A stretch of DNA of 64,000 nucleotides from Minisyncoccota bacterium (GCA_041389085.1 JAWKSL010000001.1:102765-166764); one strand, 5' to 3'; positions 14,773 through 53,678 are shown, numbered from the stretch's first letter. Translations and numbers: made by a program. Notes: generated by a model from the sequence alone, not told the origin.

Positions 14773-14815
14773 AACAGCGCGCGTCCTTCGGGATTCGCGC
14801 TGTTGCTGTTTTTAA
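14773..14815 (+). terminator. intrinsic terminator
   Basis: aacagcgcgcg...cgcgctgtt stem + gctgttttt. Confidence 0.65.
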
Positions 14816-15366
14816 AATACTGTTTTTTCTTTTTTTGCGAGCTCGAGGATTTTTTCTAAGCGTTTCTTTTTCGTAGCTTCTTGCTTAGCGCTTAAGTACC
14901 AACGATATATTGGCCTCTTTTTTGAAGGAGAAAGTTTTTCGAAAAACTTTCTTGCTGTTTTATTTTTCTTGAGCGCAGCTGCAAGCTCTTTCGGCATGTT
15001 TGGGTTTTTAGGAATGCCTGCGTCGTGCGTAGGCTTCTTGAGCCCCTCTTTATAGAAGTGGAGGCCGCGCTCTGTCATCTTCCCTTCTTTCTTAAGCTGC
15101 TTGGCGTAGCTCAAGGTATTGTCAGACCACTTTGAGTTTTTGTTTCTTCTGCTGAAGTGGCGAATGTAGCGGTCTTCGTCTATGCGCTTTATCGTTGTAT
15201 CTATCCAGCCAAAGCAAATAGCCTCAAACATAACTTCCTTGTGAGTTGGAAAGCTTTTGCCTGTATGCTTTTTGTGAATGATGAGCGCAACCTTCTCTTC
15301 CTTGTCGTGGTTTTTCTCAAGCCACTTTCGAAAATCTTCTGCGCTAAATACTTCAAACTCCTTCAT
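14812..15366 (-). CDS. YdeI/OmpD-associated family protein
   Basis: Lys-rich ~185 aa with FGWIDT motif, matches YdeI family pattern. Confidence 0.65.
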   Translation of the reverse strand: MKEFEVFSAEDFRKWLEKNHDKEEKVALIIHKKHTGKSFPTHKEVMFEAICFGWIDTTIKRIDEDRYIRHFSRRNKNSKWSDNTLSYAKQLKKEGKMTERGLHFYKEGLKKPTHDAGIPKNPNMPKELAAALKKNKTARKFFEKLSPSKKRPIYRWYLSAKQEATKKKRLEKILELAKKEKTVF

Positions 15367-16467: not shown

Positions 16468-16595
16468 CTCCGTTTTCTATCTCTTCACCATGAAGAGTTC
16501 TATATTTAGTTTACTCCTATCTAACAAATTCTCTAAATTTTACTTATCGGCTTTTATAAAATAGACTGACTCTACCATCGTTGAAAGGAGCAACC

Positions 16596-16844
16596 ATGCC
16601 TTGCGACCATAAGCCTAACTGCGATCAGGCCTTTTGCATGGAGTGCGGCAAAAAAAACCCCTCCTTCAATCGGGATGTGCACGGAGAATACGAGAAGTTT
16701 GTTGATATGCACTGCCTTCTCGGACACCCCTTCGCTGCGAAATTCGCCCTGGAAATGCAAAGGTGTGGCGAGGAGCCGCCGAACTTCTGCCCCGAATGTG
16801 GAGCAGCACTGACCGAGCAGTCACCGCAAGAGCCACTCAAATGA
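16596..16844 (+). CDS. small double zinc-ribbon protein, paralog 1
   Basis: AAAGGAG upstream; CMECGKKNP and CPECG motifs. Confidence 0.55.
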   Translation: MPCDHKPNCDQAFCMECGKKNPSFNRDVHGEYEKFVDMHCLLGHPFAAKFALEMQRCGEEPPNFCPECGAALTEQSPQEPLK

Positions 16845-16862: not shown

Positions 16863-16919
16863 TTTACATATTTATTTCAATAGAATAGTATGGGCTCGTT
16901 AGTACTGGAGATACGACTA

Positions 16920-17156
16920 ATGCCCTGTTCCCACCCCCAACCCTCCAACGTAGCTTTCTGCACGGAGTGCGGCGAGAAAAACCCGTACTTCGACAGGAGG
17001 CTATTTCAGCAGATGCACCGAAACAACAAGAGCTACGAGGAAGCTCTTGGGGACTGCTTCGAAGGCCACTCTGCTACGCTTGAGGCGGCGCGCATCATCT
17101 TCGAAGGTGAAGATGTGCTGCGCTACTGCCCCGACTGCGGGACGGTGCTCACCTAG
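16920..17156 (+). CDS. small double zinc-ribbon protein, paralog 2
   Basis: tandem paralog (MPCSHPQ..FCTECGEKNP vs MPCDHKP..FCMECGKKNP); CPDCG. Confidence 0.55.
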   Translation: MPCSHPQPSNVAFCTECGEKNPYFDRRLFQQMHRNNKSYEEALGDCFEGHSATLEAARIIFEGEDVLRYCPDCGTVLT

Positions 17157-17164
17157 CAGGAAAC

Positions 17165-17197
17165 GCGAGAGCCACTCTGAGGAGTGGCTCTGTTTTT
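17165..17197 (+). terminator. intrinsic terminator (bidirectional)
   Basis: gagccactc-tgag-gagtggctc, same 9 bp stem as 16833 copy. Confidence 0.6.
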
Positions 17198-17646
17198 TAT
17201 TGACAAATATCTATTTTCATGTTTAAATATCTGTCGAACCTCAGAAGAAAGGACTCGCGGTTTGAGCAAGCTTGGCAGGCATTTGAAAACGTTTCTGGTA
17301 CCGGGTTGCACGGCGCTGTTATGCACTCTACCTGCACCTGCCCGCAGACTGGCTGGTACACTGCTGTGCAGGCGTCTACATTTCTTTGCTCTGGCTTGCA
17401 CTCTACTCCTGCTACTGGCGCAGGCTCTGGGTCTGCTTGTACTTGTGGACATTCTTCAAACTCACAGTTTGGGCCGGTGCAGCCAACTGCGCTACCGTCT
17501 GGGCATATCTTTGCCTCAAGAGTGCAGGCTGTGCCATCTGGCTCTTTATCTTCGTTTATTGGCGCTTCCATCTTTTCAGCAAACAAGTAGCTGTATGCTG
17601 CAAAAGCGAGCACAAGGGCTATAAGGGCGAGTAATATTTTTTTCAT
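17197..17646 (-). CDS. secreted Cys-rich protein with Kazal-like domain
   Basis: signal peptide; YQPVCG...C...ETFSNACQAC resembles Kazal-type inhibitor fold. Confidence 0.5.
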   Translation of the reverse strand: MKKILLALIALVLAFAAYSYLFAEKMEAPINEDKEPDGTACTLEAKICPDGSAVGCTGPNCEFEECPQVQADPEPAPVAGVECKPEQRNVDACTAVYQPVCGQVQVECITAPCNPVPETFSNACQACSNRESFLLRFDRYLNMKIDICQ

Positions 17647-17653
17647 ACTAAAA

Positions 17654-18193
17654 TTATACGTTATTTCTTAATTTCTTTCTGAGCTCTTTGTAGTTTGGGA
17701 TAGCTTTTTCTACGAGTGCCCAAAACTCTTTTGAATGGTTAAGTTCTTTAAGATGGCAAAGCTCGTGGACTACTATATAGTCTTGCAGCTCTTGAGGAAG
17801 CAACACTATGCGTGCGCTAAAGCTCATATTTCCTTTGTCTGAACAAGAACCCCAGCGAGTCTTTGGGTTTGTTACTGAAACTCTGTTGTACTGGTAGCCG
17901 TAGAGCTTGTTGAAGTGTGCGAGCCTTTCTTTTACCAGCTTTCTTGCAGCTTCTTTATTCTTTAAATACTGAGTTCGAGTAAAAGACTTTTCCGATACTG
18001 GCTTGAGTTTGCCGAGCTTTTTTACGTTTTTCTCTATCCAGCCTGCGTGAAGGCGCAAAAACTTTTCTATACTTCGCTGGCTTGCTCGTAGCGGCCCGCT
18101 TAATACAACTCTACCTCCTGGGTGTACCGTGAGGCGTAAATATTTTGAGCGCTTGGATTTGCGAATGGTAACTTCCTGCACTACTTCTTCCAA
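17654..18193 (-). CDS. YgjP-like metallopeptidase (DUF45/M48 family)
   Basis: WGSCS and HELCHL (HExxH) motifs. Confidence 0.8.
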   Translation of the reverse strand: MEEVVQEVTIRKSKRSKYLRLTVHPGGRVVLSGPLRASQRSIEKFLRLHAGWIEKNVKKLGKLKPVSEKSFTRTQYLKNKEAARKLVKERLAHFNKLYGYQYNRVSVTNPKTRWGSCSDKGNMSFSARIVLLPQELQDYIVVHELCHLKELNHSKEFWALVEKAIPNYKELRKKLRNNV

Positions 18194-18360
18194 TCTTTAA
18201 TAATAAGGGTTTTGCCTACCTGCTCTACTACAACCTGTTGACGCTCCTGCCAGCGCAGGTTGCGAATCATAGAGGCTGGCAGCGTAACCCCTATTGTTCG
18301 TTTCCCGCCAGTGCGGAAAAGCTTGCGAACGTTTTCATCTCCCAATTTTCTTCGAGCCAT
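18181..18360 (-). CDS. AbrB/MazE/SpoVT-family small DNA-binding protein (59 aa, below ORF-track cutoff)
   Basis: MARRKLGDENVRKLFRTGGKRTIGVTLPASMIRNLRW...: swapped-hairpin-like motif; overlaps YgjP gene start by 13 nt. Confidence 0.45.
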   Translation of the reverse strand: MARRKLGDENVRKLFRTGGKRTIGVTLPASMIRNLRWQERQQVVVEQVGKTLIIKDWKK

Positions 18361-18410
18361 ATTTTTCTTTGTTAATAATCTTTCTCTTAGTTTAACACTC
18401 TTCCCTCCTC

Positions 18411-18457
18411 TGCTCTAGAGCAAGCTCTATATTATGCTCTAGAGCATAATATAGAGC
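18411..18457. promoter_or_regulatory. operator-like palindromes: TGCTCTAGAGCA twice, second inside a 34 bp perfect palindrome
   Basis: 12-mer at 18411-18422 and 18435-18446; perfect palindrome gctctatattatgctctagagcataatatagagc 18424-18457. Confidence 0.5.
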
Positions 18458-18591
18458 AGACAGGGGAGTGGGTTTTTAAAAAAATTGCGCGAAGAGTTCG
18501 CAGTGTACGTGTTTGCTGCTTTTCACTTGCCATTTCTTTGAAATCATTGCATTATTCTCTCACCCCTAATTTCAGGGTGGAGGTCTTTCAT

Positions 18592-19518
18592 ATGGATAGG
18601 ACGGCTTTGTTTGATTTTGCCTTGGAGGAACTCATTACTGCCTTCGACCAGGGGTTGATGCTTCTGGTAGTTGGCGGCAGAAGCACAAACCTGTCCGCAG
18701 AAATGAGAGACGGTCAAAACATCGTGTGGCTTGGTAGCACCGACGCTGCGTCCATGGGTGCAAATAGCATCCCCGAGCGAGTCGGAGTGGTGCTTTTCCT
18801 TCGCTTCATTGATCATAAGCTTTTTGAGCGGTTGCGTGCCGACGCCGATCGCAAGAAGATAAGCTTCCTGGGGCCATTTGGCACCGGAGAGCTTCGCAAG
18901 CTCTACTCCCAGGCTCGCAAGGCCCTGGAGAGCGAGAGTAGCGAGTGCGAGGACGCACATGATTATGAGGCGACTCAGAGGAAGGACTACTCTGGGTTGG
19001 TAGCGGCCATTTTTGACCGCGTGAAGACTGAGGATCTCTCGGAAGAACGCCTCGAGGACACATCCTTCTTGAAGGCTCTGGCCGAGGAACTAAGTATCAG
19101 CTGGCCCTCTCTCTCGCTTAAGCGGACAAGGCGGGTGTTTAGAAGCTGCCTTATCACACTTGAGGTGATAAACCCGGTGCAAACAAGCGAAGAGCAGGTA
19201 GAGGAGGCAGAGGCGCAGACTCGCTCGGAAAGCGAAGAAGTCGCAAAACTCAAGAGAGAGGTTGCTCGTCTTCAGCAGAAGCTCTCAGATGCGACCGCGC
19301 TTGCCAACAAGAGGCATGGCGAGAACTCCAAGCTTATTGGTCAAAACAAGAGCCTGCGAAGGAGGATGCAGGCCCTGCGCACAGAGCTCGCCAAGGCAGA
19401 AGATGCCCAGGCGATAGCAATCGAGATGATGGATAGATTCCCTGTGCTGAGGCTTCTCCTCAGCGATCAGGGAAACGAGGCTGTGCCTCCAGCTGAAGCC
19501 AGTTCTCGTCCTTACTAG
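18592..19518 (+). CDS. hypothetical protein with C-terminal coiled coil (island E)
   Basis: GGTGGAGG upstream of ATG; heptad-rich C-term. Confidence 0.5.
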   Translation: MDRTALFDFALEELITAFDQGLMLLVVGGRSTNLSAEMRDGQNIVWLGSTDAASMGANSIPERVGVVLFLRFIDHKLFERLRADADRKKISFLGPFGTGELRKLYSQARKALESESSECEDAHDYEATQRKDYSGLVAAIFDRVKTEDLSEERLEDTSFLKALAEELSISWPSLSLKRTRRVFRSCLITLEVINPVQTSEEQVEEAEAQTRSESEEVAKLKREVARLQQKLSDATALANKRHGENSKLIGQNKSLRRRMQALRTELAKAEDAQAIAIEMMDRFPVLRLLLSDQGNEAVPPAEASSRPY

Positions 19519-19523
19519 CGAGA

Positions 19524-19563
19524 GCGCTGGTGGCAGCAATGCCACTGGCGCTCAATTTTTTAT
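19524..19563 (+). terminator. intrinsic terminator
   Basis: gcgctggtggcagcaatgccactggcgc + ttttttat. Confidence 0.6.
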
Positions 19564-19620
19564 AAAAATCAAACGGCGCGGGCTTCCTTGCGGATGCTCG
19601 CGCCGAATGGCGTTGTGGGG

Positions 19621-20319
19621 TTACCGGCCGGGTATGGCGGGCGGGCGAAAGCTCATGTCGCCAGCTGCCATACTCAGTGCAGCTTGGAAGCCCTTGAGGA
19701 AGGTGTCTACCTCCCCTTCGGTGCGCAAGGTCTCGGTCCAGGTTGCCTTCGGTGTCTCGACAGTGACGTGGTAGACGGTTACCTTGGGGTCTTGCGCCAC
19801 ATGGATTGCCAAAAGGGTGATCTTGCCCTGAGGGCCAGTGGCAGGAAGATCGTCGACTGTGTTGAAGGCGGCTTCTGTGCTGAAGTTCTCAGGGTAATCG
19901 ACACCCTCGATTGAGGCGGTCGGCATTCCCGTGCCCCACTCAGCAACGTAGGCGTCGACTTCCTCCTGAGTGAAGGTGGGTCTGCCGCCTACCATCCGGT
20001 AGACGACCTTCTCTTGTCTCATGGCCGCCAACAGCTCTTCTTCTTCCATTCCGGTCTTGCGCAAGACCTCGTCGAAGCTCAGACGACTTGGCTGCTCAAA
20101 GTAGTCAACGCCCTCGATTGAGGCGGTAGGCACACAGATCGTAGGCTTCCCCGCCAGGTAGGCGTCGATGTCGGACTGCAGGAACTTCATCTGCCCGCCC
20201 TCGCGCCACACACGAATCTTGCGCTCTTTGATCAGCGCCTCGAGGCCTTCCTCATCGGTGCTCAGCAGGCGCAGGGCCGCGTCGAAGCTCACAAACTCTG
20301 ACTTCTCTTGTCCACTCAC
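19621..20319 (-). CDS. protein with two tandem excisionase-like HTH domains (island E)
   Basis: internal ~65 aa repeat, both ending PTASIEGVDY; resembles MerR/Xis-type HTH_17. Confidence 0.45.
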   Translation of the reverse strand: MSGQEKSEFVSFDAALRLLSTDEEGLEALIKERKIRVWREGGQMKFLQSDIDAYLAGKPTICVPTASIEGVDYFEQPSRLSFDEVLRKTGMEEEELLAAMRQEKVVYRMVGGRPTFTQEEVDAYVAEWGTGMPTASIEGVDYPENFSTEAAFNTVDDLPATGPQGKITLLAIHVAQDPKVTVYHVTVETPKATWTETLRTEGEVDTFLKGFQAALSMAAGDMSFRPPAIPGR

Positions 20320-20586
20320 GATGCTCTCCTGTTCTCCTTCCCCATAGGAAGGGCTGGTTGTACTAAAAGGAAGCCTAGCGTACTCGCTTGGCTATTTCAA
20401 ATTTTTACTAGATTCCTCCGATTGTTCCCTCGAATCCAGCTTGTAGGCCCCAGCGTATTAAAAAGTAGAGGGCTATTAGAAGAATTGCTCCGCCGATAAT
20501 CTTTTTTAGCATGTATTTGTAGTAGGATTTTGTTTTATTAGGCAATCAGTTAGGGGGCTTTCCAGCCGAAGTGTGGAGGGTCCTGC

Positions 20587-53356: not shown

Positions 53357-53678
53357 TGCTCCGCGCAGGGATCGAACCTGCGACATCTTCGTTACGCTTT
53401 ACCTACTATTACTAGTAGTGCGGACTATATCATCGTCTTTCTATTTCTAGCGAAGACGCAAGGCGCTTCCCGTTGTTACGTAGCATGCTACGTAACAGCC
53501 GAGTACTCCCTTTTCGGGATAGTCTCTGAACCTTCCTACCCAAGGGCCAAGGCTTGGCTGCTGATTGCCCAGCCTAGACTGGGTTTCCAGCAATTCACCT
53601 TGTTTTTCAATCTGCATTTCTGCGAACCTGCGACATCTTCGTTAACAGCGAAGCGTTCTACCACTGAACTACCGCGGA
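53357..53678 (-). tRNA. tRNA-Asn(GUU) gene interrupted by group I intron
   Basis: minus strand: UCCGCGG-UA-GUUCAGUGGUAGAAC-G-CUUCG-CUGUUAA-CGAAG-AUGUC-GCAGG-UUCGAUC-CCUGC-GCGGAGC-A when exons joined (near-identical D/anticodon arms to E. coli tRNA-Asn); acceptor pairing imperfect in hand fold. Confidence 0.55.
53394..53644 (-). ncRNA. group I intron (approximate bounds)
   Basis: R element GGUUCAGAGACUA (53515-53532) and S element GAUGAUAUAGUCC (53421-53433) forming P7; P9-like hairpin CUACUAGUAAUAGUAG; terminal G; 22 nt direct repeat at 53372-53393 and 53623-53644. Confidence 0.65.

Follow-up and report, generated by a model that had tools for sequence, protein, structure and literature searches.

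A phased 12-bp palindromic array upstream of a small AbrB-like gene is a probable autoregulatory operator in a Minisyncoccota bacterium

The window analysed here is a stretch of 64,000 nucleotides from a Minisyncoccota bacterium; it contains a 48-bp palindromic array upstream of the gene for a 59-residue AbrB-like protein. The array is real and non-random. Comparison of homologous loci shows it, at the level of sequence, to be a family-wide companion of the AbrB-like gene. The array is probably the operator of the adjacent protein and would mediate its negative autoregulation, a reading to which we give a probability of about 0.72.

The array and its surroundings

The 12-mer TGCTCTAGAGCA occurs twice upstream of the AbrB-like gene, with a start-to-start distance of 24 bp, and the second copy is the core of a 34-bp perfect palindrome, GCTCTATATTATGCTCTAGAGCATAATATAGAGC. 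Both features had been pointed out in an earlier, sequence-only reading of this DNA, and direct reading of the sequence confirms them. The dyad centres fall at 18416/17, 18428/29, 18440/41 and 18452/53; since these are exact 12-bp steps, the element consists of four 12-bp units. Full and half dyads alternate in the 48-bp design: full, half, full, half (Table 1). In the region upstream of the AbrB-like gene, 12 is also the top direct-repeat lag, with 25/36 matches.

No other palindrome in the window is as long as the 34-mer. The runners-up are 24 bp long, and the longest palindromes in 30 shuffles range from 12 to 20 bp. With up to one mismatch, TGCTCTAGAGCA has two matches in the 64 kb compared with 0.31 expected; two matches are reached in 4 of 100 shuffles. 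There is no third copy of the 12-mer in the 64-kb window, even with one mismatch allowed. The 8-mer core CTCTAGAG is likewise confined to the array within the window. A regulon search across the same 64 kb of the ~313-kb contig, using a 10-mer with one mismatch, gives matches at chance level outside the array.

The genes named in the sequence-only reading are all present: the 59-residue MazE/AbrB-like ORF on the minus strand, the plus-strand ORF and the HTH ORF. The start codon of the AbrB-like gene is separated from the array by 50 nt. At its other end, the AbrB-like stop codon is overlapped or abutted by the start of the YgjP-like gene, which is either TTG at 18193 or GTG at 18181; the latter shares one base with the TAG. 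Because of this overlap or abutment, the two genes are probably co-transcribed under the same operator, and they probably constitute one operon.

Table 1. Positions of the array, its units and the neighbouring features in the window
Feature	Position	Strand	Basis or remark
YgjP-like (HExxH) metallopeptidase gene	17654..18193	-	PF01863, E=5e-48
59-residue domain-only AbrB/MazE/SpoVT-like protein, probable binder	18181..18360	-	Pfam, profile, AF2, Foldseek
Extended -10-like element TGTTAAACT, putative promoter of the AbrB-like gene	18389..18397	-	consensus match
Putative operator array, four tandem 12-bp units	18411..18458	.	sequence, lag 12, register of units, layout common to homologues
Unit 1, full palindrome TGCTCTAGAGCA (TGCTCT/AGAGCA)	18411..18422	.	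closest to the AbrB-like gene
Unit 2, half dyad (AGCTCT/ATATTA)	18423..18434	.	left half fits consensus, right half A/T-rich
34-bp perfect palindrome formed by units 2-4	18424..18457	.	longest in the window; shuffles up to 20 bp
Unit 3, full palindrome TGCTCTAGAGCA (TGCTCT/AGAGCA)	18435..18446	.	middle of the 34-bp palindrome
Unit 4, half dyad (TAATAT/AGAGCA)	18447..18458	.	right half only; most distal from the gene
Promoter-like site of the plus-strand gene	18527-18555	+	promoter scan; ~70 bp past the array
Coiled-coil ORF	start 18592	+	
HTH ORF	19621-20319	-	HTH_17/excisionase-type match

The region 18592-20319 is a patch of ~57% GC in a background of ~45% GC, and holds the coiled-coil and excisionase-type HTH ORFs. 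The HTH ORF has an internal repeat, in which PTASIEGVDY occurs twice. The patch is possibly foreign DNA; neither of its genes is conserved beside AbrB-like homologues. The segment 18473-18519, which lies between the array and the plus-strand gene's promoter-like site, consists of an A/T tract (TTTTTAAAAAAATT) and, after it, two weak hairpins that resemble terminators and lie on opposite strands. This segment could insulate the two divergent units. A reading as terminator was rejected on two counts: the hairpins (18488-18519) are weak, and the array has no gene reading into it. Further away on the plus strand, a tandem duplicate consists of two neighbouring, paralogous ORFs (16581-16844 and 16890-17156), which are 87-88 aa long and match double zinc ribbons.

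Two 24-bp palindromes elsewhere in the window were also noted. One is a perfect palindrome, AGAAAGTTTTTCGAAAAACTTTCT, at 14929-14952 within an OmdA/YdeI-like ORF (14812-15366); the shuffle maximum is 20 bp. The other, TGTTACGTAGCATGCTACGTAACA, lies at 53474-53497 and was considered as a sign of a second paralogue; the family HMM is negative there, and the palindrome is located within a group I intron. This intron splits a tRNA gene on the minus strand (53402-53678; RF00028, 81.6 bits, at 53402-53654; RF00005, 38 bits, at 53618-53678). The gene was missed by ARAGORN, which reported no tRNA in the window. A ~20-nt stretch, CGAAGATGTCGCAGGTTCG, recurs at the two ends.

Homologous loci

Scans of genome and metagenome contigs, the latter from a 5-sequence alignment, yielded 96 more loci. 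The comparison set consists of 84 non-redundant loci with at least 120 nt of upstream sequence, the window's own included. Palindromes with up to two mismatched pairs were counted within 120 nt upstream of the gene. Random windows of the same loci (n=420 for the lag-12 count) and other intergenic upstream regions (n=94) served as controls.

Palindromes of at least 24 bp are present in 71% of the family loci (n=84), compared with 3.8% of random windows and 9.6% of other intergenic upstream regions; for palindromes of at least 30 bp, the corresponding values are 54%, 1.1% and 5.3%. A lag of 12 gives the best direct-repeat period in 58 of the 84 family loci (69%), in 33 of 420 random windows and in 5 of 94 intergenic upstream regions. 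The palindromes had earlier been taken for operator sites, and this enrichment, with a layout that is kept and a sequence that is lineage-specific, argues for that claim. A palindrome of at least 24 bp is missing in ~29% of the 84 family loci, which counts against the operator model.

The closest homologue (62% identity) is from Patescibacteria and has gene neighbours unlike those of the window. Just upstream of it, CTCTAGAG, CTCTAGAG, CTCAAGAG and CTCTAGAG follow one another at exact 12-bp spacing. In the related loci, which together comprise 137 kb, only three stray copies of site cores are found outside arrays. A rhodopsin gene (PF01036) lies beside the closest homologue in a Patescibacteria MAG (L001 573-1202, L003 1566-2195).

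Between lineages, the layout of the array is kept while the sequence of the sites has changed. CTCATGAG occurs three to four times in L014, L018 and L088; CTACGTAG occurs three times in L076 and L079; arrays of AATTACGTAATT are found in L011-L013, L020 and L067. L094 contains CCCTAGGG, while L032 and L041 contain GTACGTAC. In L015 and L016, half dyads flank AACTGTACAGTT, a full-plus-half design like that of the window's 34-mer.

The sequence of the sites varies with that of the protein's N-terminal half. The proteins that belong to CTCTAGAG-bearing arrays (the window, L001, L004, L009 and L049) have KL[FT]R[TV] in common. Across the family, protein identity over residues 1-32 correlates with operator similarity (Spearman 0.26, Mantel p<0.001); identity over residues 33-59 does not (Spearman 0.02, p=0.33). 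Such a pattern is expected of a protein that reads DNA with its N-terminal half, and shared ancestry on its own would hardly account for it.

Two MAGs contain two paralogues each, and in both cases the arrays of the two paralogues are unrelated. In JAESTJ01, CTCTAGAG (L004) is found beside AATAGGTATT (L006); in JBLIMJ01, AATTACGTAATT (L013) is found beside CTCATGAG (L014). This suggests orthogonal pairs within a single cell, with mis-binning as another possible cause. The window contains no second paralogue; the family HMM matches 18181-18360 alone in the 64 kb.

Near-identical arrays of 40-46 bp, together with near-identical N-terminal halves of the protein, are found in L015 (3001-3177), L016 (403-579) and L019 (3001-3177). 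The assemblies are labelled Campbellbacteria, Saccharibacteria and Paceibacterota, and the downstream genes differ. This likeness hints at movement of gene plus operator as a cassette.

The neighbouring genes vary widely. Enough sequence downstream of the family gene is available for 74 of the 84 loci; a co-directional ORF follows in 50 of these and none in 24. Many of the downstream ORFs start just 2-5 nt after the small gene. Ten downstream proteins were compared with Pfam and match LexA-like, SNase, serine hydrolase, NYN, TatD, class II aaRS, HhH-GPD enzyme, SerRS, TsaD and Obg families. No cognate toxin of the PIN/VapC, MazF/PemK or Doc type adjoins the small gene: the neighbour is YgjP-like in the window, and the ORFs in the 50 loci are assorted, ten of them being those checked by Pfam. 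None of the window's HTH, coiled-coil and YgjP-like proteins has a homologue in loci L001-L099. In L053 (160-285), immediately ahead of the family member, a 42-residue stretch is 60% identical to the cysteine-rich 149-residue ORF of the window (17197-17646); no other neighbour is shared with the window.

On the upstream side, 53 loci have a co-directional neighbouring gene and 12 a divergent one. Since neighbours are not conserved, the array belongs to the small gene and not to a divergent promoter or the HTH protein. The sequence-only reading had placed the palindromes in a divergent promoter region; from the orientation counts, and from the promoter-like site that the plus-strand gene has of its own, this arrangement appears incidental. 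Of the two candidate binders then proposed, the AbrB-like protein is retained, as the similarity of the arrays follows its residues 1-32; the tandem-HTH protein is set aside, having no homologue in the other loci.

The AbrB-like protein and known regulators

The 59-residue protein is identical to NCBI R3B52_00660, a hypothetical protein encoded on a 312,629-bp contig of a Candidatus Paceibacterota MAG, and belongs to no named family in NCBIfam. Taken alone, it matches the Pfam MazE/AbrB family PF04014 with E=0.016 and 15.6 bits, which is under the threshold of 24.7. PF04014 is matched by 45 of 52 aligned relatives, at best with 3e-11. A HMMER search of the whole protein library gives 351 cluster representatives at E<=1e-3, most of them 55-63 aa in length. 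Viral contigs and GenBank phages contain no homologues of the protein. Among the papers searched, none connects AbrB with Patescibacteria or CPR.

When the family profile is compared with the PDB, the B. subtilis AbrB N-domain is matched over the whole length (residues 11-57; E=0.0018). In the family profile alignment, R12 and R33 of the window protein align with R8 and R24 of AbrB; a set of four arginines has been proposed as the DNA-binding site of AbrB, and R8 and R24 both belong to it (PMC4022651). Among the 52 relatives, R12 is nearly invariant; R33 is invariant in a 14-member subset. The spacing of D8 and R12 (D8-x3-R12) agrees with the DXXXR motif that is cited for the AbrB/MazE/SpoVT family (PMC12957436).

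The AF2 model of the monomer (pLDDT 82.7) has a beta-beta-alpha-beta-beta topology, in which two strands (14-17 and 22-25) precede the helix (29-35) and two follow it (43-48 and 51-56). In a Foldseek search of the PDB with this model, swapped-hairpin proteins account for 35 of the 36 best matches (MazE, VapB, SpoVT, AbrB/Abh, Sso7c4, C56 and C68); MazE is matched with a TM score of 0.72 and an rmsd of 1.3 A. These profile matches and the predicted fold place the protein in the AbrB-fold swapped-hairpin superfamily.

The chain ends three residues past the last predicted strand. A C-terminal toxin-binding tail is therefore absent from the 59-residue protein as modelled, and the relatives are mostly 55-63 aa. 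An AbrB-type C-terminal multimerisation domain is also absent; the 59 residues form a single domain. The protein was considered as an antitoxin, and this reading was rejected as it has neither tail nor toxin. The missing tail and the missing conserved toxin partner together point to a stand-alone autoregulator.

Antitoxins of the MazE, PemI(Kis) and VapB type are small, are encoded first in their operons and autoregulate via palindromic sites in their own promoters (PMC4803016). The window protein resembles them in its predicted swapped-hairpin DNA-binding fold (Foldseek, PF04014) and in having a putative palindromic operator in its own promoter. Unlike them, it is 59 aa long, without a C-terminal toxin-binding tail, and has no conserved toxin. 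The site differs also: unlike antitoxin operators, it belongs to a type of array with three to five units and a strict 12-bp period.

MraZ represses its own promoter, upstream of which it binds cooperatively to four boxes separated by 6-nt spacers (PMC12957436). The likeness to the present case (an AbrB fold, the first gene of the operon and about four evenly phased short boxes) is one of working, not of membership. MraZ has two AbrB-like halves in a chain of ~150 aa and also helices through which an octameric or dodecameric ring is assembled; the MraZ boxes, conserved across bacteria, are direct repeats of GTG[G/T] plus a 6-nt spacer, with a 10-bp period. In contrast, the protein described here has a single domain, and its putative sites are dyad-symmetric, have a 12-bp period and are lineage-specific. 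The dcw context (mraZ-rsmH-ftsL...) is absent; the downstream gene is YgjP-like in the window and variable in relatives.

B. subtilis AbrB, Abh and SpoVT are likewise similar, AbrB being the best PDB sequence match and having R8 and R24 opposite R12 and R33. AbrB has a C-terminal multimerisation domain and, as a tetramer, acts on over 100 genes, whose recognition sites differ widely (PMC4022651). It has 94 aa including the C-terminal domain, compared with 59 aa and no such domain here. The putative sites of the window protein also differ from those of AbrB, in that they are precise palindromes which, within the 64-kb window, are limited to its own promoter; in related loci almost none are found elsewhere.

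The yefM-yoeB operator provides a parallel for the spacing. Its L and S palindromes have a common hexamer core, lie 12 bp apart centre to centre and overlap the promoter; this spacing is needed for cooperative binding (PMC4803016, PMC1802561). The window array has the same centre-to-centre distance, but the yefM-yoeB binder has another fold (Phd/YefM) and belongs to a toxin-antitoxin pair, and its operator has two sites, not four.

In size and composition, parallels are found in archaea and their plasmid or virus elements, namely Sso7c4, C68 of pSSVx and C56 of pSSVi, which consist of the swapped-hairpin domain alone in ~55-60 aa (Foldseek 5itm/5itj, 3o27 and 7xi6). Sso7c4 binds DNA through arginine pairs on the dimer surface and is described as chromatin-like, compacting DNA (PMC5222340). 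In contrast to Sso7c4, the present family is bacterial, mainly from CPR, and appears to have a dedicated sequence-specific array at its own gene.

The 59-residue protein thus lacks defining features of antitoxins (tail and toxin), of AbrB (C-terminal domain) and of MraZ (two halves and dcw context); within the 64-kb window, no sign of a global regulon was seen. The kind of regulation is known; the toxin-less family, with its putative, strictly phased operator, is undescribed.

Promoter, proposed regulation and wider meaning

The pattern TGNTANNNT has a single match upstream of the window's AbrB-like gene, the extended -10-like element TGTTAAACT, which lies 13 nt downstream of the array and has its 3' end 28 nt before the ATG. 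We infer the -10 of the AbrB-like gene from this 9-nt pattern. Its position predicts a transcription start near 18382, which would put the array at about -30 to -75; if the assignment is correct, unit 1 would overlie the -35 region. A scan with a sigma-70-type consensus gives no minus-strand site here, which counts against the assignment; CPR promoters are uncharacterised.

Where relatives have the extended -10 motif before the ATG, it comes 9-13 nt after the array. Clear arrays span, at the median, 18 to 54 nt upstream of the ATG. From this span and the position of the extended -10, the arrays would cover the -35 region or lie immediately upstream of it. In 20 of the 84 loci, where ~1 is expected, the TGNTANNNT pattern ends 4-11 nt before the ATG, which points to leaderless or nearly leaderless mRNAs. 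The gap of 50 nt between array and ATG in the window is wider than in most relatives (median 18) and counts against the model.

The proposed mechanism is as follows. Swapped-hairpin dimers of the AbrB-like protein would recognise GCTCT/AGAGC dyads, and adjacent dimers 12 bp apart would bind cooperatively. Given such cooperativity, the two full dyads would nucleate binding, and the two half dyads would then be filled. The occupied array would span roughly -30 to -75 of the extended -10 promoter, and its proximal full dyad would overlie the -35 region. RNA polymerase would be shut out, resulting in negative autoregulation of the abrB-like gene and the overlapping YgjP-like gene. A step of 12 bp is not an integral helical repeat, which counts against the geometry of cooperative binding.

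The position of the array would fit repression or activation alike. The AbrB-like protein may therefore bind it with another outcome, either positive autoregulation, with the array replacing a missing -35 in the manner of a class II activator, or a structural or insulating nucleoprotein complex; we consider this unlikely. The family promoters do appear to be extended -10 promoters without a recognisable -35, with the array where an activator would sit, but characterised AbrB-fold proteins that bind their own promoters, namely MazE and MraZ, repress them (PMC4803016, PMC12957436). Domain-only AbrB-like proteins such as Sso7c4 are architectural DNA binders (PMC5222340); in the 64-kb window and the related loci, the arrays are specific, local and single-copy, not genome-wide, and this points away from a general architectural role. 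It is very improbable that another protein binds the array, such as the tandem-HTH protein, and chiefly controls the divergent plus-strand gene. Both genes are close by and HTH_17/excisionase-type domains bind DNA, but other loci among L001-L099 keep the array without a homologue of the HTH or coiled-coil protein. The preponderance of co-directional upstream neighbours (53 loci, with only 12 divergent), the separate promoter-like site of the plus-strand gene and the operator sequence, which follows the N-terminal half of the AbrB-like protein, are further arguments against such a binder.

A role of the palindromes as RNA, with a stable hairpin in a 5' leader or upstream transcript that acts on stability, termination or translation, is less probable still. 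The minus strand of 18361-18480 folds at -35.9 kcal/mol (z = -4.8), and the 15-bp hairpin of the 34-mer is dominant; such folding comes with any perfect palindrome, however. Neither strand has a U-run after the hairpin, no gene reads into the array, and an Rfam search of 17000-20500 with E up to 1 gives no match. The tandem direct arrays of short dyads in L001, L014, L076, L088 and L094 would not make one hairpin, while 12-bp phasing and dyads that run through the exact centre are properties at the DNA level. In relatives the -10 motif lies between array and ATG, so the array would not be transcribed. The least probable explanation is that the array serves DNA processing (as the end of a mobile element, a site of recombination or attachment, or a replication origin of cruciform type) and only happens to be beside the gene. 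Long perfect palindromes are known from such sites, the 57% GC patch with its excisionase-type HTH gene adjoins, and near-identical gene-plus-array cassettes occur across CPR lineages (L015, L016 and L019). Against this, the 64-kb window contains no second copy or matching inverted end. No recombinase is present among the listed ORFs near the gene (genome-derived loci) or among the co-directional downstream ORFs (all loci; ten checked by Pfam), and no viral or phage homologues were found. The fixed position of the array with respect to the start codon and the -10 motif suits a promoter element. An attachment site was also considered in view of tRNA genes; the tRNA scan of the window was negative and lent no support.

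Negative autoregulation through the array remains the preferred reading, and its possible meaning extends beyond this locus. CPR bacteria, or Patescibacteria, cannot be grown alone, and to our knowledge almost nothing is known of their transcription factors and promoters. The 59-residue protein and its 48-bp site make up a concrete pair that is testable heterologously. About a hundred natural variants, mostly from CPR, have altered site sequences and a fixed 12-bp layout; they could help show how the swapped-hairpin fold reads DNA sequence. For annotation, genes of this family that are often labelled antitoxin or hypothetical would be stand-alone, toxin-less regulators.

A broader system, mostly specific to CPR and undescribed, can be suggested tentatively. 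It would comprise hundreds of domain-only AbrB-like proteins, each with a private 12-bp-phased array and an extended -10, often leaderless. Such a portable, self-limiting promoter cassette would stand before genes of widely differing kinds, some of them essential (TsaD, Obg and tRNA synthetases), with several mutually orthogonal copies per genome. If true, genome-reduced bacteria would have a major layer of transcription control that has so far gone unnoticed, and the cassettes would form a natural library of repressors and operators in orthogonal pairs. The family may be a source of small pairs of this kind, and may define a promoter architecture of CPR bacteria, with an extended -10 and often without a leader.
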